From the NCBI GenBank assembly GCA_963754955.1, contig CAVWHY010000002.1, positions 14,674-78,673 on the forward strand: a stretch of DNA of 64,000 bases. The letters are read 5' to 3'. The notes beneath the pieces were generated by a model. The model worked only from the letters and a program-made list of their open reading frames with translations, was not told the origin of the DNA and did no database searches. This document shows, in pieces, positions 20,012 through 50,221 of the stretch. The number at the start of each line of letters is the position of its first letter. Position 1 is the stretch's first letter. Origin of the DNA: an uncultured Acidobacteriota bacterium. Its GTDB lineage: Bacteria > Acidobacteriota > Vicinamibacteria > Vicinamibacterales > CAVVIG01. A program made the position numbers and the translations under genes.

Positions 20012-20081
20012 AGGGCGGATCCCCCTTCAAGGTGGCAAGGCGCATCATATCGACGCGCCCGGGAGGCCGCAAGGTCCGCCG

Positions 20082-21384: not shown

Positions 21385-21391
21385 CAGGTGA

Positions 21392-22622
21392 TCATTCCCG
21401 CCTGAGCGCCTCGATCGGATCGAGCGCCGCCGCCCGGGAGGCGGGGTACAGGCCGAAGAAGAGGCCGACGAGCGCCGTGATCGTGATGCCCAGCACCACC
21501 GCCCAGATTTCGACCTTCGCCGGAATCGGCGTGAGCGCTGAAACCGCCAGCGCGACGGAGCTGCCCAGGATCGTGCCCACGACGCCGCCGAACATCGACA
21601 GCACCACCGACTCGGTGAGCATCTGCGACATGATGTCCGACCGCTTCGCGCCGAGCGCCTTGCGCAGGCCGATCTCGCGCGTCCGCTCGCTCACGACCAT
21701 CAGCATGATGTTCATGATGACGATGCCCCCGACGACGAGCGACAGCCCCACGACACCGACGAGCACCGCGAAGATGCCGTTGGTCGCCGACTTGATAGAT
21801 GCCCAGGATCGTGTCGGACGTGTACATGCCGAAGTTGTCGGGCTGCTTCGGGCTGAGGCGCCGCGCGCCGCGGAGGGCGACGGTCGCTTCGTCCTGCGCC
21901 GCCGCGAGGTCGGAGACCTCCTTGGGCCTGACGCGGAGATCGAGGGACCGCCTGGACCCGAACATCATCGCGAACTGGCCGAGCGGGATGATCGCGAAGC
22001 TGTCCTGCGACTGGCCGAGCATCGAGCCTTTCTTCTCGCTCACGCCCACGACCTGAAAGTGCACGCCCTCGATCTGGATGATCTTGTCGATCGGATCCAC
22101 GTTGGTGCCGAACAGGCGGTCCGCGGTCTGCCAGCCGAGGACCGTGACCGGACGCGAGCGCTCCACTTCGATAGGGCTCATGAGGCGGCCGCGCTCGGCG
22201 GTATAGCCCGAGAAGCTGATGTAGCTGGAACTGACGCCCTCGACCTGCGTGTTGTCGATGGACTTGTCGCGAAACGTGATCCGCCCGCGCCCGCTGGTGT
22301 TGGCCATGATGGCGGCGATGTGTTCGCCGTCGTACCGCTGGATCGCGCGCATGTCCTGCATCGTGATGATCGGGTTGCTGCGGACGCGGTCGAAGTCCTC
22401 GTCGCTGCGCGTGACGGGGTACCGCTGGATGCTGAAGGACTCGGCGCCGGCCTCGTCGAGAATCGCCTGCTTGACCGAGGCGTTGAGCCCCTGGATGAGC
22501 GACACCACGGCAATGATGGACGTCACCGCCACGATGTTGCCGAGCACGGTCATGAACGACCGCAGCTTGGCCGACCAGATGGCGGCCAGCGCGATCTTCG
22601 CCGATTCGAGGATGGTATTCAT
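21392..22622 (-). CDS. FtsX/MacB-type ABC permease, one extra base about 21795
   Basis: N-terminus ..KLRSFMTVLGNIVAVTSIIAVVSL..; C-terminus (ORF 21392-21766) ..VVSERTREIGLRKALGAKRSDI..LYPASRAAALDPIEALRRE*. Length 1231 = 3n+1. Confidence 0.85.
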
Positions 22623-22652
22623 AACACGGCCGGGCCGGGCGGCTCCCGCCCT

Positions 22653-24065
22653 CTAGGACCCGGTCCGGTTCCGCTGGTTCCTCTTGTTGTCGACTTTCAC
22701 GGGATCGCCGTCCGTGATGTTGCGGACCGAGTTGTACGGCCCGGTGACGACCTCGTCGCCCGCCTTGACCCCGGAGAGCACTTCGAAGAACTTGTCGCCC
22801 GCGATGCCCATCTTGATGGGGACGAACTCGACGCGCTTTTCCTTCTCCCGCACGACGAACACGCCCTCCACTTCTTTGCGTGTCTGGCCGGGTTTCAGGT
22901 CGGGCAACGGCTGGTACGACGACTCCGAACTGGTGCCGCTCCCGCTGCTGGTGCTGCTGCTGTTGCTGCTGCTGAAAAAACTGCGGCGGCGGCGCTTCAA
23001 CGCCTGCGGGTCGCGATAGATCTGCCCGTTCGCTTCGTAGATCAGCTCGCGCACGGCCACTGACGGAATCGGCACGGCGACCACGCCGTGGCGTGTCGCC
23101 GTCTTGATGTCGGACGTGCACGTGAAGCCCGGCCGGACCTCCGGGACCTTCTCGTCGAGGACGACCACCACCTTGAAATTCGTCGCCTGCGTACCGGCAC
23201 CGCCGCCCGACGTCGTCTGAATCGGGCTGTTGCCGATTTCGGTGACGTGGCCCTGGAAGCTGCGGTCGGGAATGGCGTCGATGGTGATCTTCGCCGTCTG
23301 CCCGAGCTGCACGTTCGGGATGTTGGTTTCGTCGACTTCGACCTCCGCCTGGATGATCGACATGTCGGCCAGCGTCAGCAGCACGGTGCCGGCGTTGTTC
23401 ATCGTGCCGATCATCGCGGTTTCGCCTTCCTGGATGTTCCGGCGGGTCACGATGCCTTCGATTGGCGACTCGATGCGGACCTTGCTGAGATCGTATTTGG
23501 CGTTATCGAGCGTCGCGCGCTCCTGCATGATGCGGCTGTCCTGGGCGTGGGCGCTCTTCTCGCGCTCCTGCAGGGAGGACTCGGCGGTCCGCACGTCGTT
23601 CTCCGCCCGCTCCAGCGATTCCCTCGTCGTCAGCTGTTGTTTCCACAGCGTCTGCTGCCGGGCGAGGTTCTGCCTCGCCTGATCGAGCTGGACCCGCGCC
23701 GTTTCGACGGACTGCCGCATCTGCTCGAGCGACGCCTGCGCGACCTGGAGGGATGCCTCGCCGCTGTCGACGCGCGTGCGGAGCGACTTCGGGTCGATCT
23801 GCAGCAGGAACTGGCCGACGTGGACGCGATCGCCCTCGTTCACCGCCAGGTTGACGACGCGCCCGGCGGTTTCCGCGGTGATGTTGACGAGCCGCTTCGG
23901 CTGAATCTTGCCGGAGGCCGACACGATGGCCTCGAGGTCGCGCGCCTTGATTTGCTCGGTCGTCACCGTCAGACCGCTGTCGCGGATGAAGTAGATGTTC
24001 GCCCCGACAACGGCGGCGGCCACCAGCACGACTCCGACGGTGATGAGAATGTTCTTCCCGGACAT
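22653..24065 (-). CDS. HlyD/MacA-family periplasmic adaptor (membrane fusion protein)
   Basis: 470 aa; N-terminal TM, coiled-coil hairpin (..ASLEQMRQSVETARVQLDQARQNLARQQTL..), lipoyl and beta-barrel motifs (IESPIEGIV.RRN.QEGE). Ser-rich insert near the C-terminus. Confidence 0.9.
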   Translation of the reverse strand: MSGKNILITVGVVLVAAAVVGANIYFIRDSGLTVTTEQIKARDLEAIVSASGKIQPKRLVNITAETAGRVVNLAVNEGDRVHVGQFLLQIDPKSLRTRVDSGEASLQVAQASLEQMRQSVETARVQLDQARQNLARQQTLWKQQLTTRESLERAENDVRTAESSLQEREKSAHAQDSRIMQERATLDNAKYDLSKVRIESPIEGIVTRRNIQEGETAMIGTMNNAGTVLLTLADMSIIQAEVEVDETNIPNVQLGQTAKITIDAIPDRSFQGHVTEIGNSPIQTTSGGGAGTQATNFKVVVVLDEKVPEVRPGFTCTSDIKTATRHGVVAVPIPSVAVRELIYEANGQIYRDPQALKRRRRSFFSSSNSSSTSSGSGTSSESSYQPLPDLKPGQTRKEVEGVFVVREKEKRVEFVPIKMGIAGDKFFEVLSGVKAGDEVVTGPYNSVRNITDGDPVKVDNKRNQRNRTGS

Positions 24066-27095: not shown

Positions 27096-27141
27096 GTCAG
27101 TAGTGACATTTATTGTCAGAATTGGATAGCGACTAGTCCCC

Positions 27142-28932
27142 ATGGCCGTCCGCATTGGCGAGCTCCTGCTGAAGGAGAAACGCATCACCGCCGACCAGCT
27201 CCAGCAGGCCTTGAACCATCAAAAGGCCAACGGCGGGAAGCTCGGCTACAACCTCGTCAAACTGGGGATCGTCAAGGACGACGAGATCACGGCGCTGCTG
27301 AGCAAGCAGTACGGCGTGCCGTCGATCAACCTCACGCAGTTCGACATCGATCCGGCCGTCATCAAGCTGATTCCCGCGGAGACGGCGCACAAGTATCAGA
27401 TCGTGCCGCTGTCGCGGGCAGGCGCGACGCTGACGATCGCGATGACGGATCCCACCAACGTCTTCGCGATGGACGACATCAAGTTCATGACCGGCTACAA
27501 CGTCGAGCCGGTCGTCGCGTCCGAGACGGCGGTGGTCGAAGCGGTCCTGCGGTACTACCCGACCGGCGGCGCCCCGAAGCCCGTGGGCCAGAGCAAGGCC
27601 GCCGTGCAGTCGGCGCCTCCGACGGCGGGCGGCCCGAGCGCGCTCGACATGGCCACCAAGGGCCTCGAGGAGATGCAGGCGCTTGCCGACACGGGCGACG
27701 TCGAAGTCCTCGAGGAGCTGCAGGAGATCAGCGCCGACGCGCTGGCCAAGCAGGGAGAAGAAGCGCCGGTCGTCCGCCTGGTGAACGTCGTGCTGATGTC
27801 CGCGATTCAGAAGGGCGCCAGCGACATCCACATCGAGCCCTACGAGAAGGAACTGCGCATCCGGTACCGCATCGACGGCATCCTCTACAACATCATGCAG
27901 CCGCCGATGAAGTTCCGCGACGCGATCTCGTCGCGCCTGAAGATCATGGCGAAGCTCGATATCGCGGAGAAGCGCCTGCCGCAGGACGGCCGCATCAAGA
28001 TCCGCTTCAGCGACAACGGCCAGCAGAAGGAAATCGACTTCCGCGTCTCGGTGCTGCCGACGCTCTTCGGCGAGAAGATCGTCATGCGTCTGCTCGACAA
28101 AGACAAGCTGATGCTCGACATGACGAAGCTGGGTTTCGAGCAGGAGTCGCTGACCAAGTTCGAGACGGCGATTCTGCGTCCGTGGGGCATGGTGCTCGTG
28201 ACGGGCCCGACCGGCAGCGGCAAGACGAACACGCTCTACTCGTCGATCTCCAAGGTGAACACGCCGGAAACCAACATCATGACGGCGGAAGATCCGGTGG
28301 AGTTCAACCTGGTCGGCGTCAACCAGGTGCAGATCCGGGAAAACATCGGGCTCAACTTCGCGGCGGCGCTGCGGTCGTTCCTCCGGCAGGACCCGAACAT
28401 CATCCTGGTCGGCGAAATCCGCGACTTCGAGACGGCCGAAATCGCCGTGAAGGCGGCGCTCACGGGGCACCTCGTGCTGTCGACGCTGCACACGAACGAC
28501 GCGCCGAGCACGATCAACCGCCTGATGAACATGGGCATCGAGCCGTTCCTGGTGGCAAGCTCCGTGCATCTGATCTGCGCCCAGCGCCTTTGCCGACGCG
28601 TGTGCGCCAACTGCAAGGAACCGCACCCGACGCCGCCGCCAGCGCTCATCCACGCCGGGTTCACGCAAGAGGAAGCCGAGAAGATCACGCCCATGAAGGG
28701 CAAGGGCTGCGAGCGGTGCAACAACACCGGCTACAAGGGCCGCGTCGGCCTGTACGAGGTGATGGAGGTCAGCGAGGAGCTCCGCGAGCTGATTCTGGTC
28801 GGCGCCTCCGGCCTCGAGTTGCGGCGCAAGGCGATCGACGAAGGAATGATCACGCTCAGGCGCAGCGGCCTGCGCAAGGTGATGGACGGCATGACGTCAG
28901 TGGAAGAAGTGGTCCGGGAGACGGTGAAGTAA
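27142..28932 (+). CDS. pilB: Type IV pilus assembly ATPase PilB (GspE family)
   Basis: 596 aa; N-terminal T2SS-E_N repeats, Walker A GPTGSGKTNTLY, tetracysteine CxxC..CxxC. Confidence 0.93.
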   Translation: MAVRIGELLLKEKRITADQLQQALNHQKANGGKLGYNLVKLGIVKDDEITALLSKQYGVPSINLTQFDIDPAVIKLIPAETAHKYQIVPLSRAGATLTIAMTDPTNVFAMDDIKFMTGYNVEPVVASETAVVEAVLRYYPTGGAPKPVGQSKAAVQSAPPTAGGPSALDMATKGLEEMQALADTGDVEVLEELQEISADALAKQGEEAPVVRLVNVVLMSAIQKGASDIHIEPYEKELRIRYRIDGILYNIMQPPMKFRDAISSRLKIMAKLDIAEKRLPQDGRIKIRFSDNGQQKEIDFRVSVLPTLFGEKIVMRLLDKDKLMLDMTKLGFEQESLTKFETAILRPWGMVLVTGPTGSGKTNTLYSSISKVNTPETNIMTAEDPVEFNLVGVNQVQIRENIGLNFAAALRSFLRQDPNIILVGEIRDFETAEIAVKAALTGHLVLSTLHTNDAPSTINRLMNMGIEPFLVASSVHLICAQRLCRRVCANCKEPHPTPPPALIHAGFTQEEAEKITPMKGKGCERCNNTGYKGRVGLYEVMEVSEELRELILVGASGLELRRKAIDEGMITLRRSGLRKVMDGMTSVEEVVRETVK

Positions 28933-28995: not shown

Positions 28996-30123
<1,128 letters not shown>

Positions 30124-30138: not shown

Positions 30139-31371
30139 ATGGCTAACTTCGCATATTCGGGACGGACGCGCGGCGGAGAGACGGTCAGCGGCGAGCGGAT
30201 CGCCGACACCATGGACGCGGCTGTGGCCGCGCTGCGCCGCGACCAGATCCTGGTCACGCGGATCACGCCGACCAAGGCCAGGGCCGAGGAGAAGGACAAG
30301 GAAAAGGCCAAGGGCGGCGGCGGCAAGACCACCAAGAGGGTGGCCGCCAAGAACCTGGCCGTGTTCACCCGCCAGTTCTCGGTGATGATCGACGCCGGGC
30401 TGCCCCTCGTGCAGTGCCTCGACATCCTGGGCAACCAGGAAGAGGACAAGAATTTCGCCGAGGTCATCCTGCAGACGCGGTCGAGCGTCGAAGGCGGCGC
30501 GGCGCTTGCCGACGCGATGCGGAAATTCCCGAACTCGTTCGACCCGCTCTTCACGAACATGATCGCCGCGGGCGAGGCGGGCGGTATTCTGGATACGATT
30601 CTGAAGCGGCTGGCGGTCTACATCGAGAAGAACGTCAAGCTCAAGGGTCAGGTCAAGTCGGCGATGATCTACCCGATCGCCGTGATCGTCATCGCAGGCG
30701 CGGTGGTGGGCGTCATTCTCTGGAAGGTGATCCCGACATTCGCGGCGATGTTCGCCGGCCTTGGCGCCCAGCTGCCGCTGCCGACCCGCATCGTCATCGC
30801 GCTCAGCGACAACCTGGTGAAGTACGGGCTGTTCGCCATTCCCGTTGTCGGCATCGGGGGATACGCGTTCACGCAGTACTACAAGACGGACGGCGGCCGC
30901 CACGCGGTCGACGCGGTCGCGCTGAAGATGCCGGTGCTCGGCATGCTCCTCCGCAAGATCGCGGTGGCCAGGTTCTGCCGGACGCTCTCGACGCTCATCT
31001 CCTCGGGCGTGCCCATCCTCGATGGCCTGGACATCACGGCGCGCACGTCGGGCAACGCGATCGTCGAGGACGCCATTCTCGAGACGCGGAAGAGCATCGA
31101 GCGCGGCGAGACGATTTCCGCGCCGCTCAAGGAAACCAACGTGTTCCCGTCGATGGTGACCCAGATGATCAGCGTCGGCGAGGCCACGGGCGCGCTCGAC
31201 GCGATGCTCGCGAAGATCGCCGACTTCTACGAAGAGGAAGTCGACGTGGCGGTCGCGGGTATGCTGACGCTGCTCGAACCGATCATGATCGCGTTTCTCG
31301 GTACCGTGGTCGGCGGCATCGTCATCGCGATGTACATGCCGATCTTCGACATGATCAGCAAGCTGACGTAG
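30139..31371 (+). CDS. pilC: Type IV pilus platform protein PilC (GspF family)
   Basis: 410 aa, two T2SS-F repeats, ..FTRQFSVMIDAGLPLVQCLDIL.. and ..FCRTLSTLISSGVPILDGL.. Confidence 0.94.
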   Translation: MANFAYSGRTRGGETVSGERIADTMDAAVAALRRDQILVTRITPTKARAEEKDKEKAKGGGGKTTKRVAAKNLAVFTRQFSVMIDAGLPLVQCLDILGNQEEDKNFAEVILQTRSSVEGGAALADAMRKFPNSFDPLFTNMIAAGEAGGILDTILKRLAVYIEKNVKLKGQVKSAMIYPIAVIVIAGAVVGVILWKVIPTFAAMFAGLGAQLPLPTRIVIALSDNLVKYGLFAIPVVGIGGYAFTQYYKTDGGRHAVDAVALKMPVLGMLLRKIAVARFCRTLSTLISSGVPILDGLDITARTSGNAIVEDAILETRKSIERGETISAPLKETNVFPSMVTQMISVGEATGALDAMLAKIADFYEEEVDVAVAGMLTLLEPIMIAFLGTVVGGIVIAMYMPIFDMISKLT

Positions 31372-33032
31372 TGGACCCCAAGACGCCCGCGAGCGACCTG
31401 CGGCGCAAGCTCCGGTGGCTGATCGCCATCCGCGCTGTGATCAGCACCGCGCTGCTGGGGTCGGCGACGTTCGCCCAGATCACCGCGCCCGGGTCGTTCC
31501 CGGTCGACCCGTTCTTCTTCCTGATCGGCCTCACGTATGCGCTGACGGCGGCCTACGCGGCGACGCTGCGGCTGGCCGAAGGCCGCCGGTGGATCATCGA
31601 CGTGCAGCTGGCCGCCGACGCGCTGATCGTCTCGGCCTTCATCTACTTCACGGGCGGCATCACCAGCTATTTCTCGTCGCTCTACGTCCTGCCGATCGTG
31701 GCGGCGTCGGTGGTGCAGTTCCGGCGCGGCGGCCTCCTCGTGGCGACGTTGAGCGCGGTGCTGTACGGCGGGGTGGTGCTGGCGCAGTACCTCACGGCTG
31801 CCGGCTACGTGCACGACCCCTGGCTGGTGTCGCCGGTGCTGCCGCCGCGGTCGGTCGCGCAGTACACCTACCTGCTCAACGCGTTCGGGTTCTTCGCGGT
31901 CGCGCTGCTCAGCGGATCGCTCGCCGATCGTGTCAGGAGTACCGGGGCGCGGCTCGAACAGGCCTCCCACCAGATCGCCGATCTGCAGGCGCTCAACCAG
32001 CACGTGATCGACAGCCTGCCGAGCGGACTGGCGACGACCGACAACACCGGCCGGATTCTGACATTCAACCGCGCCGCGGAGAACATCACCGGCCGCTCGT
32101 CCGCGTCGGTGGCCGGCCGGCCGATCGCCGAAGTGCTCCACCTCCCCGAGGACGCGGTGGGGGCCCTGGCGCCGGAACTGGATGCCGGCCGCGCGCGCCG
32201 CATGGAATCGCACTACATGCGGGCGGGCCAGCACGTCGAAATCGGCCTCAGCATCGCCTACCTGCAGACGCCGGGCGGGCGGGCCGGATACCTCGTGACG
32301 TTCCAGGACGTCACCGACATCAAGAAGCTCGAGCGCGACGCGCGCCTGCAGCAGCGCCTCGCCGCTGTCGGCGAGATGGCCGCGGGCATCGCGCACGAAA
32401 TCCGGAATCCCCTCGCCTCGATGTCCGGATCCATTCAGATTCTTCGCCACGAACTGCCCCTGAGCGCGGAGCAGAGCCAGCTCATGGACATCGTGCTGCG
32501 CGAATCCGAGCGCCTGAACACCACTATCGGATCGTTCCTCGCGTACGCGCGGCCGCAGCGGTTCGCCGTCTCGCGACACGACGTGCGCCGGGCGCTGAAC
32601 GACGCGGCGCTGCTGCTGCGCAATTCCGCCGAGGTCCAGGAAGGCCATGTCATCGACGTGGACGTGCCGGCCTCGGAGCTGTGGTACGAAGCAGACGAAG
32701 GGCAGATCAAACAGATCGTCTGGAACCTCGCCTCGAACGGCCTGCGCGCCATGCCAACGGGAGGGCGCCTGAAGTTGATCGGCGGGTACGACGAGTCCGC
32801 CGACGGCGTCGTGATCACCGTGCAGGACGAGGGCATCGGCATTCAGCCCGAGGAGCTCGACGGCCTCTTTCAGCCGTTTCACGGGCGATTCAGCCAGGGC
32901 AGCGGCCTCGGGCTGGCGATCGTGCATCGCATCGTGACCGACTACAACGGCGAGATTAAGGTCAGCTCGCAGCCGAGCCGCGGCACGACCGTGGCCGTGC
33001 ATCTGCCGGCACGGGCCGCGGTGGTGACATAG
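31371..33032 (+). CDS. pilS: PilS-like sensor histidine kinase
   Basis: The GTG overlaps the pilC stop. Multi-TM N-terminus, PAS, HisKA (MAAGIAHEIRNPL), HATPase_c (GSGLGLAIV). Sits between pilC and the sigma54 regulator. Confidence 0.85.
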   Translation: MDPKTPASDLRRKLRWLIAIRAVISTALLGSATFAQITAPGSFPVDPFFFLIGLTYALTAAYAATLRLAEGRRWIIDVQLAADALIVSAFIYFTGGITSYFSSLYVLPIVAASVVQFRRGGLLVATLSAVLYGGVVLAQYLTAAGYVHDPWLVSPVLPPRSVAQYTYLLNAFGFFAVALLSGSLADRVRSTGARLEQASHQIADLQALNQHVIDSLPSGLATTDNTGRILTFNRAAENITGRSSASVAGRPIAEVLHLPEDAVGALAPELDAGRARRMESHYMRAGQHVEIGLSIAYLQTPGGRAGYLVTFQDVTDIKKLERDARLQQRLAAVGEMAAGIAHEIRNPLASMSGSIQILRHELPLSAEQSQLMDIVLRESERLNTTIGSFLAYARPQRFAVSRHDVRRALNDAALLLRNSAEVQEGHVIDVDVPASELWYEADEGQIKQIVWNLASNGLRAMPTGGRLKLIGGYDESADGVVITVQDEGIGIQPEELDGLFQPFHGRFSQGSGLGLAIVHRIVTDYNGEIKVSSQPSRGTTVAVHLPARAAVVT

Positions 33033-33035: not shown

Positions 33036-34457
<1,422 letters not shown>

Positions 34458-34478
34458 CATTCTCTCGTCCTACATAGA

Positions 34479-34493
34479 GACAGTAATTGTCAG
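34479..34493 (+). promoter_or_regulatory. Candidate enhancer (PilR-type) site, GACA-N5-TGTC inverted repeat
   Basis: gacagtaattgtcag, about 90 nt upstream of the sigma54 promoter of pilin 1. Related ATTGTCA motifs occur at 35293 and 27109. Confidence 0.35.
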
Positions 34494-34580
34494 TTGCTGC
34501 TGATGCTGCGCGCTGGCTGGGCAGCCAAGAATCGAGGTAACTCGTGTTCCGACAACAGCTTGACGGTTAAGCCCAGCCGC

Positions 34581-34596
34581 TGGCACCCCCGTTGCT
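34581..34596 (+). promoter_or_regulatory. Sigma54 (-24/-12) promoter of pilin gene 1
   Basis: TGGCAC-ccccg-TTGCT, canonical TGGCAC-N5-TTGC spacing, 77 nt upstream of ATG 34673. A sigma54 activator gene is adjacent. Confidence 0.8.
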
Positions 34597-34672
34597 CAAG
34601 AGGTAGGCACGACATGCCTGCGACTGGGCTGCCGTTACAACATTCGGTTTGAAGGATTGAAGGGGAGAGAAG

Positions 34673-35173
34673 ATGCGAACGAACCAGAAGGGCTTCACAC
34701 TCATCGAGCTGCTGATCGTGGTTGCAATCATCGGCATCATCGCGGCGATCGCGGTGCCTGGCCTGCTCCGCGCCCGCATGTCGGGCAACGAGGCGTCGGC
34801 CATCGGGTCGATGCGCGCCATCAACACCTCACAGCAGAACTACTCGCAGCAGTGCAACGGCTACTCGCCGAGCCTCACCGAGCTGCGCGTCGCCGGCAAC
34901 TTCCTGTCGCCCGACCTCACGAGCGCGGCGTCGGTGGCGAAGAGCGGCTTCACGGTGACGATGGTGCAGGCGTCCACGGGCTCGGCCATCCCGGCGCCCC
35001 CGGCGGGCTGCACGGGCACGACGACCAACTACTACGCGACGGCGGTTCCGCTCTCGTTCGGCTCGACCGGCACGCGGTCGTTCGCGACGACGGAGCAGGG
35101 CACGATCTTCTACACCAGCGCCGCCGCGGCTCCGGCCGACCCGATTCCGGCCGCTGCGACCCCGATTCAGTAA
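34673..35173 (+). CDS. pilA: Type IV pilin (major pilin candidate), copy 1
   Basis: MRTNQKG|FTLIELLIVVAIIGIIAAIAVP: class III signal with G-F cleavage and E+5. 166 aa, two Cys. Confidence 0.92.
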   Translation: MRTNQKGFTLIELLIVVAIIGIIAAIAVPGLLRARMSGNEASAIGSMRAINTSQQNYSQQCNGYSPSLTELRVAGNFLSPDLTSAASVAKSGFTVTMVQASTGSAIPAPPAGCTGTTTNYYATAVPLSFGSTGTRSFATTEQGTIFYTSAAAAPADPIPAAATPIQ

Positions 35174-35196
35174 CCGTAGGACCGCTTCTTCTCCCA

Positions 35197-35236
35197 CCGG
35201 CATGGCTTCGCAAGGGGCCATGCCGGTTTCCATTTT
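35197..35236 (+). terminator. Rho-independent terminator after pilin 1
   Basis: ccggcatggc-loop-gccatgccgg followed by TTTCCATTTT. Confidence 0.8.
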
Positions 35237-35269
35237 GGGACACCCAGGGAGGCAATCCCTGACACTCGC

Positions 35270-35302
35270 TGTCAATCCGGGCAGTCACAAATTGTCAATC
35301 CG
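35270..35302 (+). promoter_or_regulatory. Direct repeat TGTCAATCCG x2 (23-nt spacing), candidate enhancer for pilin 2
   Basis: tgtcaatccg at 35270-35279 and 35293-35302, with a related ggcaatccc at 35251. They lie 70-100 nt upstream of the second sigma54 promoter. Confidence 0.4.
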
Positions 35303-35371
35303 CGGTGATTCCGGTCCTGTAATTTCGTTCTAAACACCTGAATTATAGGCATTTAATAGAAACACCGCCTC

Positions 35372-35387
35372 TGGCATACCCGTTGCT
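35372..35387 (+). promoter_or_regulatory. Sigma54 (-24/-12) promoter of pilin gene 2
   Basis: TGGCAT-acccg-TTGCT, followed by GGCACGAC as in copy 1. Confidence 0.78.
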
Positions 35388-35468
35388 CCTTGGCTGGGCA
35401 CGACGACGCCAACCGAGCACAGTCGTAATGGAACACTTTCAGTTACTGAGATGAAGGAGAACAGACCG

Positions 35469-35969
35469 ATGCGAACGAATCAGAAAGGTTTCACGTTGAT
35501 CGAGCTGTTGATCGTGGTTGCGATCATCGGCATCATCGCGGCGATCGCGGTGCCTGGCCTGCTCCGCGCCCGCATGTCGGGCAACGAGGCGTCGGCCATC
35601 GGGTCGATGCGCGCCATCAACACCTCGCAGCAGAACTACTCGCAGCAGTGCAACGGCTACTCGCCCAGCCTGACGGAGCTGCGCGTGGCCGGCAACTTCC
35701 TGTCGCCCGACCTGACGAGCGCAGCGTCGGTGGCGAAGAGCGGCTTCACGGTGACGATGGTCCAGTCGTCACTGGGCGCGGCGATCCCGGCGCCCCCGGC
35801 GGGCTGCACGGGCACCACGACCAACTACTACGCGACGGCGGTTCCGCTCTCGTTCGGTTCGACCGGCACGCGGTCGTTCGCGACGACGGAGCAGGGCACG
35901 ATCTTCTACACCAGCACCGCCGCCGCCCCGGCGGATCCGATTCCCGCCGCTGCGACCCCGATTCAGTAA
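35469..35969 (+). CDS. pilA: Type IV pilin, copy 2 (tandem paralogue, about 96% identical protein)
   Basis: Same 166-aa protein apart from QASTGSAI>QSSLGAAI and SAAAAP>STAAAP. AAGGAGA Shine-Dalgarno 8 nt before ATG 35469; the track ORF starts earlier at 35451. Confidence 0.9.
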   Translation: MRTNQKGFTLIELLIVVAIIGIIAAIAVPGLLRARMSGNEASAIGSMRAINTSQQNYSQQCNGYSPSLTELRVAGNFLSPDLTSAASVAKSGFTVTMVQSSLGAAIPAPPAGCTGTTTNYYATAVPLSFGSTGTRSFATTEQGTIFYTSTAAAPADPIPAAATPIQ

Positions 35970-35990
35970 CGCTTCGCGTTTTCACAATCA

Positions 35991-36034
35991 CCGGCATGGT
36001 TCCGCAAGGAGCCATGCCGGTTTCTTTTTTGTTT
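35991..36034. terminator. Rho-independent terminator after pilin 2 (bidirectional position)
   Basis: ccggcatgg-loop-ccatgccgg then TTTCTTTTTTGTTT. A convergent gene ends at 36042. Confidence 0.85.
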
Positions 36035-36041
36035 GGGGGAT

Positions 36042-37067
36042 CTACTTGCCGCGTGAGGATGCTGCCGCTTCGGCCGCCTTCTTCTCCTCGAGCCGGGCGC
36101 CGACGAGCGTGTTGTAAAGGCCGTAGTTCCCTTCGTGGCAGGCGTGCTCGAACAGCGGTCCCGTCGTCGTCACCATGGGCATTTCCGCGGTCCACGGCCG
36201 TGTCCACGTCGAGGGATCCTCGACCGTGAAGCTGTATTGGATGGCGTCGGGGGAGACGCGCGTGAACCGCTCCGTCACGCGCATGTTCGCGCTCGAGCCT
36301 TCGAGCGGATTCTTGCCGTTGAAGTTGGTGGTCTCGACGACCAGGGTGTTGCCGTCCCACCGCCCATGCGACAGCCCGATCCATTGCCGGATATTGCCGG
36401 GGGACTGTGCAGCGGCGTCGAGGGGAATGATGCGGACGTCGTGAATCATCTCCGTGAGAATCATGACGTGGCCCGGGGCCTGGACGATCTGATAGTTGGC
36501 GTTGTACGCGGAGTTCAGCATGGGCGGCCCGGAGCCCACCATGATGATGCACCGGTCGTCGAGCTGGTTGCTCTGCGCCGAGTCCCACCGCCCGACGCGC
36601 TTGGCGAGTTCCGCGGCTTCCGCGGCGCGCTTCTGCCCCTCGGCCGACAGCGGCGGCAGGCGGCCGTCTTCCGGATCCACGATCAACGAGGTGCGCAGAT
36701 TGCGGGCGAGTTTCGACTGGCTCTTGTCGAGTCCGAACTGGCTGAAGTCGTAGTGCACGTCGGCGACGGTTCCGGGCGTCGTCAGCTCGTTCTCGCTGGC
36801 GGCGGCGCGTTTCTCGGCTTCCATCGCTTCTGCCGCCGTATAGAACGCCTTGGTCACGCCCTTCGGCCGCTGGAGCGGCGTGTAGGTCGAGTTGGTCCAG
36901 AACCCCTGGATGTCCGGCTGCCCGTCCGGCGTGCGCGGGGGCGCGTAGGGCTTCGCCGGCTGGCTCACTTTCGTTGGAGCGGGTGGCGCCTGGCCAGCGA
37001 TTGTGACGGACAGCGGCGACATAACGACCGTCACCAGACCGACGCAGGCGAGCAATGGACGAGTCAT
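36042..37067 (-). CDS. Secreted conserved hypothetical protein
   Basis: 341 aa, signal peptide MTRPLLACVGLVTVVMSPLSVTIAGQ, high GC3, C-terminal motif FEHACHEGNYG. No family recognised. Confidence 0.65.
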   Translation of the reverse strand: MTRPLLACVGLVTVVMSPLSVTIAGQAPPAPTKVSQPAKPYAPPRTPDGQPDIQGFWTNSTYTPLQRPKGVTKAFYTAAEAMEAEKRAAASENELTTPGTVADVHYDFSQFGLDKSQSKLARNLRTSLIVDPEDGRLPPLSAEGQKRAAEAAELAKRVGRWDSAQSNQLDDRCIIMVGSGPPMLNSAYNANYQIVQAPGHVMILTEMIHDVRIIPLDAAAQSPGNIRQWIGLSHGRWDGNTLVVETTNFNGKNPLEGSSANMRVTERFTRVSPDAIQYSFTVEDPSTWTRPWTAEMPMVTTTGPLFEHACHEGNYGLYNTLVGARLEEKKAAEAAASSRGK

Positions 37068-39418: not shown

Positions 39419-40052
39419 GATCCACGTCTGGTCCGACGTCGTCTGCCCCTGGTGCTACGTGGGGAAGCGCCGCTTCGAGCGGGCTCTCGACGGCTTTGCC
39501 CACCGGGACCAGGTCCAGGTGACGCATCGCGCGTTCCAGCTCGACCCGGCGCGGCCGCGCGGCGAAACGGCGAGCCGTCGCGCCATGCTGATGTCGAAAT
39601 ACCACCGCACCGCCGCCGAAGTCCTCGAGATGGATCGCCAGATGGAAGCGCTCGCGGCCGCCGAAGGCCTCGAGTATCACCTGACCGACGCGAACCTGAC
39701 CGGCAATACGCTGGACGCTCACCGGTTGCTGCACCTCGCCGGAACGCGCGGCCTGCGGGACGCGGTCCTCGAACGGCTCTACCGCGCGTACTTCACCGAG
39801 CAGCGGTCGATCTTCGACGTCGAGTCGCTCGTGATGCTCGGAGCCGAGACGGGGCTTGACGCGGACGAGGCTCGCCGGGCGCTCGACAGCGGCGCGTTCG
39901 GCGAGGCCGTTGCCGAGGATCTCAGAGAAGCGAAGTCTCTCGGCATCACCGGCGTTCCCTTCTTCGTCATTGATGGCCGCTATGGAATCTCCGGCGCACA
40001 GCAGACCGACGTGTTCGGTCAGGCCCTCGCACGTGTCTGGGAAGAACAATGA
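39417..40052 (+). CDS. DsbA-family (FrnE-like) thiol:disulfide oxidoreductase; start codon unresolved
   Basis: Homology begins KIHVWSDVVCPWCYVGKRRFERAL (CPWC at 39444-39455), upstream of the first callable start (GTG 39459). The frame is open only from 39405 and has no ATG/GTG/TTG there. C-terminus ..GITGVPFFVIDGRYGISGAQ.. Confidence 0.75.
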   Translation, partial: KIHVWSDVVCPWCYVGKRRFERALDGFAHRDQVQVTHRAFQLDPARPRGETASRRAMLMSKYHRTAAEVLEMDRQMEALAAAEGLEYHLTDANLTGNTLDAHRLLHLAGTRGLRDAVLERLYRAYFTEQRSIFDVESLVMLGAETGLDADEARRALDSGAFGEAVAEDLREAKSLGITGVPFFVIDGRYGISGAQQTDVFGQALARVWEEQ

Positions 40053-41637: not shown

Positions 41638-42833
41638 GTGAGTCCCACCGCCAGAACGCTGGCTGTAGTCTGTGCGCTGGCCGGGCTTGCGGCGATGGTT
41701 GCCGCCGCCTACGTGCACTATCACCTGATCTTCGATCCGCGCTACGCCTCGTTCTGCGACATCAACACGACGGTCAGCTGCACGCAGGTGTACCTGAGCC
41801 GGTACAGCACCGTGGCCGGCGTTCCCGTCGCGATCTACGGGATCATCTTCTTTGCCGGCGTGCTCCTGCTGCTCCTGGCTGGTTCGGTCGGGCCGCAGGC
41901 GATGCGCGAAAACGTGCCCGGGTATCTGTTCGCCCTGTCCACGGCCGGACTCGCCGTGGTTCTCTACCTCGGCTACATCTCCATAGCCGTTCTCAAGGCA
42001 TACTGCGTCTTGTGCCTGACCAGCGACGCCGCGGTGGTCGGGTTGTTCCTGGTGTCCGGCGCTGCCACTTCCTTTCCCATGACGACATTACCCCGACGAG
42101 CTGTCACCGATCTGCGCGCCTGGATTTCGAGCCCGATCGCCATCGCGGTCACCGTGCTGTTCTTCGGCGGCGCGGCGTCGGCCGTGGCGTTCTTCCCGCG
42201 AGAGAGTGCGGCGCCCGCGTTGGCCGGACAGGCGGCGCCGCCCCAGGATCCGCGGTCCGAGTTCGAACGCTGGTACGCGGCCCAGCCGCGCGTCCCGATC
42301 ATCGTGCCCAGCGAGGGCGCGAAGGTGCTGATCGTCGACTTCAGCGACTTCCAGTGCCCGTACTGCCGGCAGGCGTTCGTGTCGCTCAAGCCGATCATCG
42401 CCAAGTACAACGCGCAGGCGCCGAACACCGTTCGGCTCGTGCTGAAGGACTATCCGCTCGAGTCGGAGTGCAACCCCAACGTGCAGGGCGGCGGACCGCA
42501 CCCGTCGGCCTGCGAGGCCGCGGTCGCCGTCCGGCTGGCCCGCGGGCACAACCGGGAAGATGCGATGGAGGAGTGGCTGTTCTCCAACCAGGAGGGCATG
42601 ACGCCCGACACCGTGCAAGAAGGCGGCGCGCGAGGTTGGACAGGTCACGGATTTCGATGCGAAGTACGCGTCGCTGCTGGACCTCGTCAAGGGCGACATC
42701 GCGTTCGGCAAGACGCTCGGCGTCCAGGCGACGCCGACCCTCTTCATCAACGGCGTGAAGATCGCCGGGGTGCTCGCCCCCCAGTATCTCGACCAGGCGA
42801 TCACCGATCGAGCTACAGCGCGCGGCCAAATGA
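41638..42833 (+). CDS. VKOR (vitamin K epoxide reductase homologue) fused to a DsbA/thioredoxin domain; two extra bases
   Basis: N-terminal TM domain with loop Cys pair (SFCDINTTVSC) and CVLC; C-terminal ..VDFSDFQCPYCRQA..ATPTLFINGVKI... Shifts at about 42617 and about 42808. Alternative stop at 42850 if there is only one shift. Confidence 0.8.
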
Positions 42834-42902
42834 CCGATATATTCAGGTGAGGAGTGGTCCGCGCGTCGGCGGACCCATGGGGCCAGGCCGCCCTCGAGAC
42901 GA

Positions 42903-43844
42903 TTGACACCCGCGATCGAAACCATCGAGCTGACCAAGGACTACGCCGTTGGCTTCTGGCGGAAGCGGCCCCGGCGTGTCCTCGATCGCCTGTCGTTGAC
43001 GGTCGAACCCGGCGAGGTGTTCGGCTTTCTCGGGCCGAACGGCGCCGGCAAGACGACCACGCTCAAGCTGCTGCTGCAGCTCGTGTTTCCCACCTCCGGC
43101 GAGGCGCGCATCCTCGGACGCCCGGCCGGCGACCTCGACGCCAAACGCCGCTTCGGCTATCTGCCGGAGCAGCCCTACTTCTACGATCACCTGACGGCCG
43201 AAGAGCTGCTCACCTACTACGCCGGGTTGTTCGGCATCGGTGCGGCCGACCGGCGCCAGCGCGTCGGCTCGCTGCTCGACGATGTGGGCATCGGCCGTGA
43301 GCGCCGCGACCCGCTGCGCAAGTTTCCAAGGGCATGCTGCAGCGCGTGGGTATCGCCCAGGCGCTCATCAACGAGCCCGAGCTCGTGATCCTCGACGAGC
43401 CGATGTCGGGGCTCGACCCGCTCGGCCGCCGCGACGTCCGCGCGCTCATCCTGCGGCTGCGCGACCGCGGGTGCACCGTGTTTTTCAGCTCGCACGTCCT
43501 GAGCGACGCGGAGGCGCTGTGCAGCCGGGTCGCGATCCTCGCGAAGGGCCGGCTGGTCGCCAGCGGCCTGCTGAGCGAGATGCTGGCCTTCAGCGTCCAC
43601 GGCTGGGAACTGGTCGTCGCCGACCTGCGCGACGATGCCATCGCGAAGCTGCGCGCGCGCGTGCGGAGCGCCGTCGCCATCGGCGGCGGACGGTTTCAGC
43701 TCGAGCTGCCGCTCGAAACGCCGCCCGAACAGTTGCTGGCCGAAATCGTCGTCGGCCGGCGGGCGGCTGGTGTCGCTCAACCCGATCCGGGAAACGCTCG
43801 AGGAGCTCTTCATCGAGCGCGTCGGCGGGGCCGCAGCGTCATGA
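42903..43844 (+). CDS. ABC transporter ATP-binding protein (PilH-like position); two compensating shifts
   Basis: TTG start; Walker [11 protein letters not shown]; signature [14 protein letters not shown]; Walker B LVILDEP. One missing base at about 43323 (T-run) and one extra base at about 43750. Confidence 0.82.
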
Positions 43845-44650
43845 GAACCCTCGGCTGGATCGCGATGAACGGCTTCCGCGAGTCGGTGCGCGACAAGGTG
43901 CTGTACAACCTCGTCGCGTTCGCGATTCTGCTGATGGGCACCTCGTACCTGCTGGGACAGCTGACGGCCGGCCAGGATCTGAAGATCATGAAGGACCTCG
44001 GCCTGTCGGCGATGGCCGTGTTCGGCCTGTTCATGGCCGTCTTCATCGGCATCGGCCTGGTCTCGAAGGAAGTGGAGCGGCGGAGCATCTACAACCTGAT
44101 GGCCAAGCCGATCCGGCGCCATCAGATCGTGCTCGGCAAGTACGCCGGCCTCGTCGTGACGCTCACGGTCAACGTCGTGATCATGACCGCGGCGCTCTAC
44201 CTGGTGCTCGGCTACGTCGGCTGGGGCGAGAACGAGTTCGCGAAGGCCGCCCGTGAGGCGCCCGCGCTCGATCCCGCGCTCCTCAAGGCGGTCGTGCTGA
44301 TCCTCGTGCAGTTGATGATCGTCACCGCGATCGCGACGTTCTTCTCGACGTTCTCGACGCCGATTCTCTCGGCCGCGCTGACCTTCGGGTTCTACGTGGC
44401 GGGCTATTTCAGCGCGGACCTCCGCAACTTCGACCAGGTCGTGGATTCGAAGGTCGGTGCAGTGGTTGGCGCGCGGCGCTTGTATTACGTGCTGCCGAAC
44501 CTCGCGCCGTTCGACGTGACCGCGCAGGTGGTCCACGGCCTGCCCGTGACGTTCGGCTACATGGCCGTGACGATCGGCTACGGGCTCGTCTACATCGCGA
44601 TGCTGCTCATCGGCGGCGCGTTGATCTTCTCGCGGCGGGACTTCAAATGA
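43841..44650 (+). CDS. ABC-2 type transporter permease (PilI-like position)
   Basis: The ATG overlaps the ATPase stop (ATGA). 269 aa, 6 TM, ..FRESVRDKVLYNLVAFAILLM.. Confidence 0.8.
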   Translation: MRTLGWIAMNGFRESVRDKVLYNLVAFAILLMGTSYLLGQLTAGQDLKIMKDLGLSAMAVFGLFMAVFIGIGLVSKEVERRSIYNLMAKPIRRHQIVLGKYAGLVVTLTVNVVIMTAALYLVLGYVGWGENEFAKAAREAPALDPALLKAVVLILVQLMIVTAIATFFSTFSTPILSAALTFGFYVAGYFSADLRNFDQVVDSKVGAVVGARRLYYVLPNLAPFDVTAQVVHGLPVTFGYMAVTIGYGLVYIAMLLIGGALIFSRRDFK

Positions 44651-46393: not shown

Positions 46394-47669
46394 ATGACGC
46401 CTGCCGGCCAGCTGTTTCTGGGCCTGACCGCGATCGTGACGGTCCTCGTCGCCGTCATGACGTTCGCCGTGCTGAAGTTCTTCACGGCGGCGCGCGACAC
46501 GCGGGGCCGGATGAGAGACGGCGGCATGGAGACCGCGCTCCTGTCGGCGGCCCTGCAGGACGCGGTCACCAAGCTGAAGGCGCAGGAGCGCGCGATGACG
46601 CTGCGCGCCGAGGCCTCCGAGCGGCTCAGCGACGAGATCATCGCCAACCTGACCGCCGGCCTGCTGATGGTCAACCGATCGGGCGAAGTGCAGATCGTCA
46701 ATCCCGGTCGGCCGGCGCCTGCTCAATCTGCACGACGGCCCGCACCGCGGCGTCCACTACCGGCAGCTGCTGGCGCACGCGGAGCCCCTGGCCGCAATCA
46801 TCGAGCAGTGCCTCAGCACGGGGCGCACGATGATCCGCCGCGCGGTCGAGTTGCCGGCGGCCACGGCGCCCTCGCTGCACCTGGGCCTCAGCGTGTCGCC
46901 GCTCGGCGACGAGTCGTCCGCGCCGCACGGCGTGATTTGCCTCTTCACGGATCTCTCGGCGGTCGTGGCGCTCGAGGAGCAGGTGCGGCTCAAGGACAGC
47001 CTGGCGAGGGTCGGTGAGCTGACGGCCGGCATCGCGCACGAGTTTCGCAACGGGCTGGCCACCATCCACGGCTACAGCCGCCTGCTGAACCTCGACGCGC
47101 TGCCCGGAGCAGTTCCGCCCGTACGTCGAAGGCATTCGCGCCGAGACCGAATCGATGCGCGAGGTCGTGACGAACTTCCTGAACTTCGCGAAGCCCGATC
47201 AGCCGACGCTGTCGCCGGTCGATCTCGGCGCCATCGCCGAGCGCGCGGCCGACGACCTGCGCGCCGACGCGCGCGCGCTGGCCGGCGACATCCGCGTGCG
47301 AAGGCGAGTTCGCGACGATCGAAGGCGACGACGTGCTGCTCCGGCAGGCGTTCAGCAACCTGCTGCGGAACGCCATCGAGGCCTGTGCGGCGGCGGCGAC
47401 TGCGCCGTCGGTGTCGGTTGAGGCGCAGATCGATCGCGCGCAGGGCGTCTGCACGATCTCGGTCCGCGACAACGGACCGGGCTTTCCCGAACACATGCGC
47501 GATCGCGTGTTTCACCCGTTCTTCACGACGAAGGCGCAGGGCACGGGTCTCGGCCTGGCGCTGGTGCAGAAGATCGTCGTCACGCACAACGGGCGCGTCG
47601 TCGGCCGGCAGCGATCCGGAAGGTGGCGGTCGCATCACGATCGTGCTTCCAGTCACGGATCAGACCTAG
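46394..47669 (+). pseudogene. Sensor histidine kinase (TM, PAS-like, HisKA, HATPase_c), four +1 shifts
   Basis: Segments in frame path 2>0>1>2>0: ..LKAQERAMTLRAEASERLSDEIIANLTAGLLMVN.. / ..ELTAGIAHEFRNGLATIHGYSRLL.. / ..MREVVTNFLNFAKP.. / ..NLLRNAIEA..VRDNGPGFP..HPFFTTKAQGTGLGLALV. Confidence 0.78.
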
Positions 47670-47809
47670 CCTCTATCGCCAGGCGGCCCTGCAGTTTCTG
47701 CCACCCTGCCCGCAGGGGATACTGCAGCCCCTGCAGCGGTCTCGATCTCCTAGCCGGCCCTCATCGCGAAATCGTTCGAGTTTCCACGTCCATGCACCGG
47801 TGCTCGGCC

Positions 47810-47825
47810 TGGAGCGCGCGTTGCA
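47810..47825 (+). promoter_or_regulatory. Possible sigma54 promoter upstream of the minor-pilin genes
   Basis: TGGAGC-gcgcg-TTGCA has correct GG/GC spacing but lies only 14 nt before ATG 47839, which would give a near-leaderless mRNA. Weak call. Confidence 0.3.
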
Positions 47826-47838
47826 CTTCCTGCCGGAC

Positions 47839-48259
47839 ATGGCGACGAAGACTACATCCGGCATTCTCAAGAGCGAACGCGGCTTCTCGCTGCTCGAAGT
47901 CGTGATCGCCGCTGGCCTGGTCGCCGGCGCGTTTGCAGCGCTCGCGCAGGTGCTCGCGATGTCCCTTGCCAGCAACGTGTCGGCGCGCAGCGGTTCGACG
48001 GCGACGGTGCTGGCCGTGCAGAAGATGGAACAGCTGCGCGCGTTGCCCTGGGGCCCACGCGCACCGGGCGTGGACTACTTCGATCTCGCCGGAAACGTGC
48101 TGGGTGAGAGCGGTGCCGGCCCGCCCGGAACGGTGTACGTTCGCCGCTGGTCTGTTGACCGTTCAGGCGACGAAGACGAGGTCGTTCTGCAGGTCCGGTG
48201 TGACGGGCGGACACAACGGCGCGCGCCTGGTCACCACCCGGAGGAGGCAGGCGCCATGA
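47839..48259 (+). CDS. Minor (pseudo)pilin, PilV/GspI-like, one extra base about 48201
   Basis: ..KSERG|FSLLEVVIAAGLVAGAFAAL prepilin-type N-terminal methylation motif. Length 421 = 3n+1. Confidence 0.75.
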
Positions 48260-49438: not shown

Positions 49439-49441
49439 GTC

Positions 49442-50221
49442 GTGCGAGTGGAAGACAACGTCAGTGCTGGCGCCGGACACCGGCTCGCCGATGAGCGCGG
49501 GATGGCGCTGCTCGTCGCGCTCATGGCGATCCTCCTCGTGATGGCGCTCGGAACCGCGCTGGTTCTCGCCGCCAGCGTCGAGTCGACGATCACCAGAAAT
49601 TTCCGCAACAGTTCGGAAGCGCTCTACGCCGCCGACGCCGGAGTCGAGCGGGCAGTCGGCGATTTGAACGCGATCGCAGACTGGAATGCCGTCTTGTCCG
49701 GTGCGGCGTCGTCTGCGTTTGCGGATGGTACGCCCACCGGAGTCCGTACCCTGCCGGATGGCCAGCTTATCGACCTGGCCGCGGTCCTCAACCTCGCCAA
49801 CTGCCGGCAGACGAGCCTCTGCTCGACTGCAGCGATGGATGCGGCGACGGCCGACCGTCCGTGGGGCTCGAACAACCCGCGCTGGCAGCCGTTCGCGTGG
49901 GGGCCACTGATTGGCCTGCTGCCGGCTGAGGCAGACGAGCCGCCGTTTTACGTCTTCGTGATGGTCGGCGACGATCCGTCCGAGAACGATGGCGATCCGC
50001 TGGCAGACGGGGCGGTCCCGTGTGCGCCGGGAGAGACAAGCACGTGCAATCCTGGAACCGATCGCCTCGCGCTCCGCGCCGAGGCGTTCGGGCCCTTTGG
50101 CGCTCACGCGATCCTCGAGTTGACGATTGCACGGCGCGGCGCCGGCGAGCGTCCGCCGGACGATGATGACGGCGGGGGTCAGGCAGGCGTACGCGTCCTG
50201 TCCTGGCGCGAGCTGAGATAG
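49442..50221 (+). CDS. PilX-like minor pilin / pilus-associated protein
   Basis: GTG start; ..DERGMALLVALMAILLVMALGTALVLAAS.E..I.RNF... resembles the PilX N-terminal domain. 4 Cys. Confidence 0.65.
   Translation: MRVEDNVSAGAGHRLADERGMALLVALMAILLVMALGTALVLAASVESTITRNFRNSSEALYAADAGVERAVGDLNAIADWNAVLSGAASSAFADGTPTGVRTLPDGQLIDLAAVLNLANCRQTSLCSTAAMDAATADRPWGSNNPRWQPFAWGPLIGLLPAEADEPPFYVFVMVGDDPSENDGDPLADGAVPCAPGETSTCNPGTDRLALRAEAFGPFGAHAILELTIARRGAGERPPDDDDGGGQAGVRVLSWRELR

Follow-up and report, generated by a model that had tools for sequence, protein, structure and literature searches.

Why would a bacterial genome keep two almost identical genes for one pilus subunit side by side, each with control signals of its own? 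The question is raised by a stretch of 64,000 nucleotides (nt) from an uncultured bacterium of the Acidobacteriota (contig CAVWHY010000002.1 of assembly GCA_963754955.1), called the window below, in whose coordinates positions are given and in which two pilin genes stand in tandem behind the regulator gene pilR. The answer considered probable here is that the pair consists of two PilR/sigma-54-driven pilin units in a Myxococcus-type pilus cluster, stemming from an old duplication that has been homogenised by gene conversion.

The tandem pilin genes

The two genes and their ribosome-binding sites are placed as follows.

34662-34667, + strand: ribosome-binding site of copy 1, GGGGAG
34673-35173, + strand: pilin gene copy 1, 166 amino acids (aa), 7-residue leader, patch allele QASTGSAI
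35456-35459, + strand: ribosome-binding site of copy 2, GGAG
35469-35969, + strand: pilin gene copy 2, 166 aa, patch allele QSSLGAAI

Both open reading frames (ORFs) lie where a sequence-only reading of the window had put its tandem 166-aa pilins, with a start-to-start distance of 796 nt. An alternative in-frame ATG of copy 2 at 35451 lacks a ribosome-binding site. Each protein begins with MRTNQKG followed by FTLIELLIVVAIIG, that is, with a 7-residue basic leader ending in Gly and then a hydrophobic stretch with Phe+1 and Glu+5. This arrangement is the class III signal peptide (prepilin leader) of type IVa major pilins, and both proteins are matched by Pfam N_methyl (E = 1.7e-10) and by TIGR02532 (E = 1.1e-9).

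The two genes are 94.0% identical in DNA sequence (30 differences over 501 nt, with no indels) and 98% identical in protein sequence. Twenty-four codons differ only synonymously, and four replacements are present: A100S, T102L, S104A and A150T. The differences are unevenly spread, with 8 in nt 1-54, 7 in nt 55-293, 7 in nt 294-315, 2 in nt 316-447 and 6 in nt 448-477, and their clustering is modestly non-random (P = 0.005-0.03, according to the statistic used). The segment at nt 294-315 is the QASTGSAI/QSSLGAAI patch. The mosaic that had been described earlier, with a synonymously differing 5' coding end, a long near-identical stretch and a short divergent patch, is borne out by these counts. 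Past the patch, high identity returns and continues across the stop codon into the terminator hairpin, whereas the 215 nt located 5' of each start codon are only 43.7% identical between the copies (here and below, upstream identities are based on MAFFT alignments).

An old duplication homogenised by gene conversion

The nearest relatives of the window are metagenome-assembled genomes (MAGs) of uncultured Acidobacteriota, collinear with it at 88-90% nucleotide identity (related loci L004 and L006, and the ENA contig L003); more distant matches are labelled Vicinamibacterales. The window itself is absent from the GTDB species representatives. A tandem pair after pilR is also found in L004 and L006, which are separate MAG assemblies, with a spacing of 797-799 nt. 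The unit length is consequently kept at 796-799 nt in three genomes. L003, which contains frameshifts from sequencing errors, carries the pair about 830 nt apart, and the more distant L008, L010 and L013 have a tandem pair with a different spacing. The sequence-only reading had proposed to check copy number in relatives; the pair proves to be old, being present in L003, L004, L006, L008, L010 and L013.

Within each of six genomes, the paired coding regions are 94-99% identical after nt 54, whereas coding identity between the more distant genomes is 72-81%. The upstream DNA behaves in the opposite way. The region upstream of window copy 2 is 75.5% and 71.3% identical to that of copy 2 in L004 and L006, respectively, and the region upstream of window copy 1 is 58.6% and 64.2% identical to that of copy 1 in the same two genomes. 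The beginning of the coding sequence follows the upstream DNA: over the first 50 coding nt, window copy 2 shows no difference from L006 copy 2 and two from L004 copy 2, but seven from window copy 1. In the first ~50 coding nt, the synonymous variants are position-specific and shared across the three genomes.

Paralogs are thus closer than orthologs while their flanks remain positionally orthologous, and concerted evolution is demonstrated. Because coding sequences group by genome, whereas upstream DNA and the first ~50 nt group by position, the history read from these comparisons is that of an old whole-unit duplication, which predates the split from the sister species and was followed by repeated gene conversion. 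Gene conversion, which had been suggested from the mosaic of the two copies, is strongly supported by this comparison of paralogs with orthologs. The conversion tracts begin near nt 55, include the terminator and rarely extend to where the homology ends on the 5' side; the promoter regions, like the first ~50 nt of the genes, evolve independently.

Sigma-54 promoters and the box at the predicted transcript start

Each unit carries a promoter of the sigma-54 type, followed by a conserved box.

34581-34596, + strand: sigma-54 -24/-12 promoter of copy 1, TGGCACCCCCGTTGCT
34606-34613, + strand: GGCACGAC box of copy 1, conserved at the predicted transcript start
35372-35387, + strand: sigma-54 -24/-12 promoter of copy 2, TGGCATACCCGTTGCT
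35397-35404, + strand: GGCACGAC box of copy 2, conserved at the predicted transcript start

Both promoters have the GG and GC doublets of the sigma-54 consensus 10 nt apart, and they alone match TGGCAY-N5-TTGCW exactly when both strands of the 64 kb are searched, where 0.05 matches would be expected; none of 100 shuffled windows contains two or more. A sigma-54-type motif lies at most 160 nt upstream in 86 of the 111 pilin copies collected from 82 related loci; by a rough base-composition estimate, chance would give about 1. The TGGCAY-N5-TTGCT promoters announced by the sequence-only reading therefore hold, both as sole matches in the window and as a motif kept in relatives. No sigma-70-like promoter was found in 34300-36200.

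The sequence that had been noticed after both promoters is indeed shared, as GGCACGAC, at 34606 and 35397. It begins 10 nt past each TTGCT and, given the usual geometry of sigma-54 promoters, would coincide with the transcript start.

The GGCACGGC/GGCACGAC box is kept at the pilin starts of L001-L013, L026, L030, L034 and L041, and it persists even where the pilins are only ~55% identical. A short hairpin (ACGGC...GCCGT) can begin in the box, with few compensatory changes. Two other roles were considered for it and rejected. For a structured RNA of the 5' untranslated region (5'UTR) starting at the GGCACGRC box, an 8-pair consensus could be drawn from 13 relatives, with 4 pairs changed on both sides, but the covariation term is close to zero. 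A second sigma-54 promoter at the GGCACG box is ruled out by the lack of a TTGC at the correct spacing. An Rfam scan of 34400-36100 returned nothing near any gathering score.

Candidate activator sites upstream of the promoters

Candidate activator sites are found upstream of both promoters and also ahead of pilB.

27104-27118, + strand: perfect TGACATTTATTGTCA site, 24 nt ahead of the start codon of pilB
34455-34469, + strand: distal activator half-site of copy 1, TGACA(ttctctcgtc), whose TGACA (34455-34459) overlaps the pilR stop codon
34478-34492, + strand: proximal activator site of copy 1, AGACAgtaatTGTCA, 9 of 10 positions, 103 nt upstream of promoter 1
35260-35274, + strand: distal activator site of copy 2, TGACActcgcTGTCA, 10 of 10 positions, 112 nt upstream of promoter 2
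35283-35297, + strand: proximal activator site of copy 2, AGTCAcaaatTGTCA, 8 of 10 positions, 89 nt upstream of promoter 2
35305-35368, + strand: A+T-rich spacer between the activator sites and promoter 2, 37-42% G+C against 66% in the window

The sequence-only reading had pointed to a direct repeat upstream of copy 2 and a palindrome upstream of copy 1. Both exist, the direct repeat TGTCAATCCG at 35270-35279 and 35293-35302 and the palindrome GACA-N5-TGTC at 34479-34491, and both belong to inverted repeats of the TGACA-N5-TGTCA type, TGTCAATCCG being the right half of each copy 2 site. In relatives, such sites are paired 22-23 nt apart and adopt two fixed layouts relative to the promoter. The type I layout (-125/-102) adjoins pilR and precedes a TGGCAC promoter. 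The type II layout (-112/-89), with TGGCAT, is found at copy 2 of the window, L004 and L006 and at the first gene of the pilin arrays of L001 and L002. The TGACA of the copy 1 distal site is invariant in a 10-sequence alignment and stands at -125 in relatives. Within the otherwise diverged intergenic DNA, the conserved blocks are the activator sites, the -24/-12 elements, the GGCACGGC box, a spacer block and the ribosome-binding site.

With at most one mismatch allowed, TGACA-N5-TGTCA occurs at 4 sites in the window against 0.79 expected, a number reached by none of 100 shuffles, and three of the four lie in intergenic DNA of the pil cluster. The distance of the sites from the promoters (89-125 nt) falls within the ~80-150 nt of sigma-54 activators, which are AAA+ proteins with a GAFTGA-type loop such as the PilR encoded next to the pair. 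The site at 27104-27118 has no sigma-54 motif downstream of it; it is identical in L003 (about 388-402), in nearly identical surroundings. It may be a third PilR site that provides feedback control of the pilB-pilR genes. The A+T-rich spacer is compatible with a candidate DNA-bending region. A metagenome scan with the copy 2 enhancer sequence gave no matches.

The earlier remark that TGTC-containing repeats were reported as PilR sites in Pseudomonas is only roughly right. The P. aeruginosa hallmarks, as quoted in PMC6058289, are a TGT-N11-AGA sequence and GTCT elements, and the motif of the window differs from them.

Terminators and predicted transcript units

Each pilin gene is followed by a hairpin terminator of its own.

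35196-35237, + strand: terminator 1, 14-bp G+C-rich stem (35196-35227), GCAA loop, T-rich tail
35990-36031, + strand: terminator 2, 14-bp G+C-rich stem (35990-36021), GCAA loop, T-rich tail

Compared with shuffled sequences, both fold with high stability (-30.7 kcal/mol, z -5.0, and -28.8 kcal/mol, z -7.4, respectively). Two separately regulated transcripts had been deduced from these independent terminators. The separate transcripts are well supported, but the separate regulation is not: because the same kind of activator site precedes both copies, both probably answer to the same PilR, and the two transcripts are probably co-regulated.

A 341-aa ORF on the minus strand (36042-37067), for which no Pfam match was found, converges on copy 2 and ends 11 nt past the T-tract of the terminator.

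The pilus gene cluster

The pilin pair closes a run of pilus genes that includes its putative regulators.

27142-28932, + strand: pilB, Pfam T2SSE and MshEN
28996-30123, + strand: pilT, Pfam T2SSE
30139-31371, + strand: pilC, Pfam T2SSF
31368-33032, + strand: pilS-like sensor kinase gene, Pfam 6TM_PilS, PAS, HisKA and HATPase_c
33036-34457, + strand: pilR-like gene for an NtrC-type sigma-54 activator, Response_reg, Sigma54_activat with GSFTGA loop, HTH_8

With the order pilB-pilT-pilC-pilS-pilR-pilA, the run is a type IVa pilus cluster of the Myxococcus type, and the pilin pair forms its major-pilin end. The Sigma54_activat domain of PilR is recognised with E = 2e-69, and 215 nt separate the end of pilR from the start of pilin copy 1. 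A PilS membrane domain and an NtrC-type regulator gene adjoining the pilin, the features of a PilS-PilR two-component system, are both present.

Proposed mechanism and points against it

In the mechanism proposed for this locus, the PilS kinase would phosphorylate PilR, which would bind the pairs of TGACA-N5-TGTCA-type sites located about 90-125 nt ahead of either promoter. By DNA looping, PilR would then reach the sigma-54 RNA polymerase at TGGCAY-N5-TTGCT, and the promoter would open. Each unit would yield a transcript of ~630 nt, which would start near the GGCACGAC box and end at the hairpin terminator of that unit. Between about nt 55 and the terminator, the two copies are kept almost the same by recurrent gene conversion. 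The likely advantage of the pair is that the most abundant protein of the pilus is supplied in larger amounts and more robustly. As a secondary effect, each copy can carry an allele of its own in the hypervariable patch.

Several observations weigh against this mechanism. A search for the RpoN-box pattern in all six frames of the 64-kb window revealed no rpoN, and no prepilin peptidase A24 gene was identified in the same 64 kb. At the copy 1 distal site, the left half alone matches in this genome, the site being fuller in relatives, and the spacer of promoter 1 is not A+T-rich here. The hairpin that could begin in the GGCACGAC box is weak, the 5'UTRs of the window folding no better than shuffled sequences (z = 0.2-0.7). 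With regard to the dosage benefit, some close relatives appear to be single-copy (L083, L088). The short-read contigs L084, L086 and L087 end just past the first pilin, as expected if the repeat breaks assemblies.

Surroundings of the cluster

A minor-pilin cluster (N_methyl, PilX_N) is located at 47623-50221. Downstream of the pilin pair, the window encodes a VKOR-DsbA fusion (41638-42906), a DsbA-family protein (39459-40052) and an ABC-2 membrane protein (43334-44650), and the pilin arrays of L001 and L002 are also trailed by DsbA- or thioredoxin-type and ABC-2 genes. This gene content agrees with disulfide formation in the two-cysteine pilin.

Two sigma-54 activator genes are present in the window. 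The second one (50887-52300) encodes a receiver, a Sigma54_activat domain with GAFTGA, an AAA lid and HTH_8, but its two parts lie in different reading frames, neither of which includes the middle of the ATPase domain. It is either a pseudogene or the product of assembly indel errors. Housekeeping genes occupy the upstream part of the window, at 9897-24065: secY, rpoA, a minus-strand EF-G paralog and a MacAB-like efflux system. One efflux permease matches the ADOP permease family of acidobacteria below the threshold, a weak hint that agrees with the taxonomic placement.

Pilin fold and variable patch

In an AlphaFold model of the pilin (pLDDT 74), residues 10-60 form a helix and the head is a beta-sheet of five strand segments. 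The model suggests, with moderate confidence, a fold made of a long N-terminal helix and a C-terminal beta-sheet head. Its top fold match in the PDB is FimA of Dichelobacter nodosus (3sok; probability 1.00, E = 2.9e-3, TM 0.45-0.49). By sequence, the PDB matches are confined to the N-terminal helix (Geobacter, Myxococcus and Thermus pilins), as is the best NCBIfam match, the myxobacterial PilA model, with 50 bits against a cut-off of 400. The pilin family is abundant in metagenomes, where at least 8000 candidates are found at E <= 0.001, although an exact-sequence look-up of the copy 1 pilin gave no record.

The replacements at residues 100, 102, 104 and 150 fall in the two most variable segments of the family, residues 96-109 and 146-166, whose mean column entropies are 1.63 and 1.20 bits, respectively, against 0.71 overall. 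The most variable 8-residue window of the family starts at residue 99. The single variable patch of the sequence-only reading thus falls where the pilin family as a whole varies most; in the model, it occupies the end of a long strand running into the Cys113 loop. At the nucleotide level, the patch of window copy 1 is the L004-type allele QASTG[SA]AI, carried by all three L004/L005 copies, and that of copy 2 is the L006-type allele QS[ST]LGAAI, carried by all three L006/L007 copies. This genome has both alleles, one per copy, whereas each sister genome is homogenised to one. The two-allele state could be either transient or kept by selection.

These differences invite another explanation, which is considered unlikely, namely that the copies are specialised and differentially regulated and that the cell switches between, or mixes, two pilus surface types. 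An example of a benefit could be escape from pilus-binding phages or predators. The placing of three of the four amino-acid differences within 5 codons (P = 0.005), inside the most variable segment, would suit such a specialisation, and so would the sharing of patch alleles across species; yet the homogenised sister genomes indicate that two alleles are not required, and merely 4 residues differ in all. Likewise, the type I and type II upstream layouts are each conserved across species, but the same half-site sequence recurs in both, and a single regulator is the simplest interpretation. Finally, the structure model is of moderate confidence, and the surface exposure of the patch in the assembled filament is presumed.

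Copy number and arrays in relatives

Copy number was surveyed at 79 loci with intact copies. Two or more tandem pilins are present in 25 of them. Near-identical pairs (at least 92% nucleotide identity) occur at 11 loci, in lineages whose pilins are ~50-70% identical to the present one, and in 9 of these 11 pairs each copy is preceded by a sigma-54 motif of its own. In L008, the second copy lies ~50 nt behind the first and has no promoter, and this pair is probably an operon.

Arrays of 3-5 tandem pilins were identified in L001 (3092-6900) and L002 (3609-5756), where they are not preceded by pilR. The first gene of each array has a type II enhancer and a consensus promoter, and the later genes have a single ATTGTCA half-site and TGGCC[AG]-N5-TTGCT promoters. 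Several of the L001 copies are frameshifted, which could reflect long-read errors or pseudogenes. Each sister genome also contains a third, unlinked pilin copy in a different and unrelated setting, L005 6001-6501 in the L004 genome and L007 6001-6501 in the L006 genome. The former adjoins a tannase gene and the latter, which retains the paired sites and the promoter, lies between RNase II and ABC transporter genes. Each of them resembles the tandem pair of its own genome.

A bolder idea, to which a low probability is given, is that the ~0.8-kb unit behaves as a self-contained cassette that is tandemly amplified (1 to 5 copies) in Vicinamibacterales and dispersed to unrelated loci, with conversion balanced against selection for different patch alleles. 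If true, each cell would have a limited set of pilus surface types that can be exchanged. In one of the most abundant soil groups, expressed copies would then play the part that cassettes play in other pilin variation.

It is very improbable that the copies come from one or more recent duplications and have stayed alike for lack of time, with no gene conversion. Coding regions 94% identical could be so explained, and the range of 1 to 5 copies in relatives implies that duplication and loss are ongoing; however, a recent whole-unit duplication would have carried the upstream DNA along, and this DNA is 43.7% identical between the copies against 59-76% to the same position in L004 and L006. The position-specific synonymous variants of the first 50 nt, common to three genomes, and the conserved unit length tell against a young pair as well. 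For the clade of the window, L004 and L006, recent duplication is already contradicted by these data, and both recent independent duplications and assembly artefacts are excluded.

Hardly credible at all is the notion that one copy is an assembly artefact, which the sequence-only reading had feared as an expanded repeat that reassembly would reduce to a single copy, or else a silent donor cassette like Neisseria pilS: many short-read pilin contigs are indeed shorter than 1 kb or stop just past the first pilin, and the likely frameshifted activator gene at 50.9-52.3 kb suggests assembly indel errors, but the copies differ at 30 substitution sites with no indels, their upstream flanks are distinct, the pair recurs in several other assemblies, and both copies are complete, from promoter and ribosome-binding site through start codon and leader peptide to terminator.

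Significance of the locus

The preferred reading of the pair, PilR-driven units of old origin kept alike by conversion, concerns Vicinamibacterales, which are abundant and mostly uncultured soil bacteria of a phylum whose pili are essentially unstudied; a literature search turned up nothing specific on Vicinamibacterales pili. For this group, the locus provides a candidate PilR operator, made of TGACA-N5-TGTCA pairs, together with a promoter architecture. It also offers a natural example of concerted evolution in which the tract boundary is conserved inside the coding region. A warning follows for genome surveys: near-identical 0.8-kb units break short-read assemblies, or may collapse in them, and the pilin copy number of MAGs is therefore easily miscounted.

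Comparison with known systems

The tufA/tufB genes of Salmonella and the rRNA operons are classic cases of concerted evolution by gene conversion. As for tufA/tufB, within-genome paralogs are here closer than between-genome orthologs, and identity decays at the edges of the tracts. Unlike tufA/tufB, the present genes are in tandem 0.8 kb apart, encode the subunit of a surface filament and keep an island of divergence in a hypervariable patch.

In the pilE/pilS system of Neisseria, diversity arises by conversion from donors that are partial cassettes lacking a promoter. The likeness resides in pilin sequences that swap segments by gene conversion and in variation focused on a surface-exposed region. 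Here, by contrast, both copies are complete genes of the expressed type, and conversion mainly removes diversity. Antigenic variation of the Neisseria type was thus set aside, as promoterless 5'-truncated donors are lacking and both copies are complete.

As far as can be judged from sequence, the regulation of the pair matches the PilS-PilR/sigma-54 paradigm of Myxococcus, Geobacter and Pseudomonas. In Myxococcus xanthus, pilA is transcribed from a sigma-54 promoter and PilR is needed (PMC6211767). The present locus shares with M. xanthus the gene order, a PilS-type kinase with six transmembrane segments, an NtrC-type PilR, and a pilin gene directly downstream of pilR behind a sigma-54 promoter. 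It differs in belonging to another phylum, in having two pilin genes with two promoters, in the size of the pilin (166 aa against 221 aa) and in two mid-protein cysteines, as in Dichelobacter FimA and Anaeromyxobacter PilA; such a mid-protein cysteine pair has been noted for some myxobacterial pilins (PMC6060248). In common with P. aeruginosa and Geobacter sulfurreducens, an NtrC-family PilR would act from sites upstream of a sigma-54 pilA promoter; TGT-containing repeats are among the hallmarks reported for those sites (PMC6058289). The motif found here is an inverted repeat, TGACA-N5-TGTCA, in pairs spaced 23 nt, and it was matched to none of the published PilR consensus sequences consulted.

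Adjacent pilin pairs have been described before. The tandem pilA genes of Stigmatella aurantiaca show 70% similarity and were called unusual, and pilAI and pilAII of Pseudomonas stutzeri are 55% identical, with opposite effects on transformation (PMC6060248). In Legionella pneumophila, distinct functions were reported for the adjacent pilins pilA1 and pilA2 (PMC13170364). In all of these, as in the window, two major-pilin-like genes are neighbours within the pilus cluster or close to it. The members of the earlier pairs have clearly diverged, whereas the present copies are 98% identical and each has a full sigma-54 module.

Taken as a whole, the locus belongs to known biology, combining a PilR/sigma-54 pilin gene, a tandem pilin duplication and concerted evolution in a tidy but fairly ordinary manner, and the current understanding of type IV pilus regulation is not overturned. 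What sets it apart is that two pilin copies, 98% identical and each with a full sigma-54 module, are kept alike by conversion.

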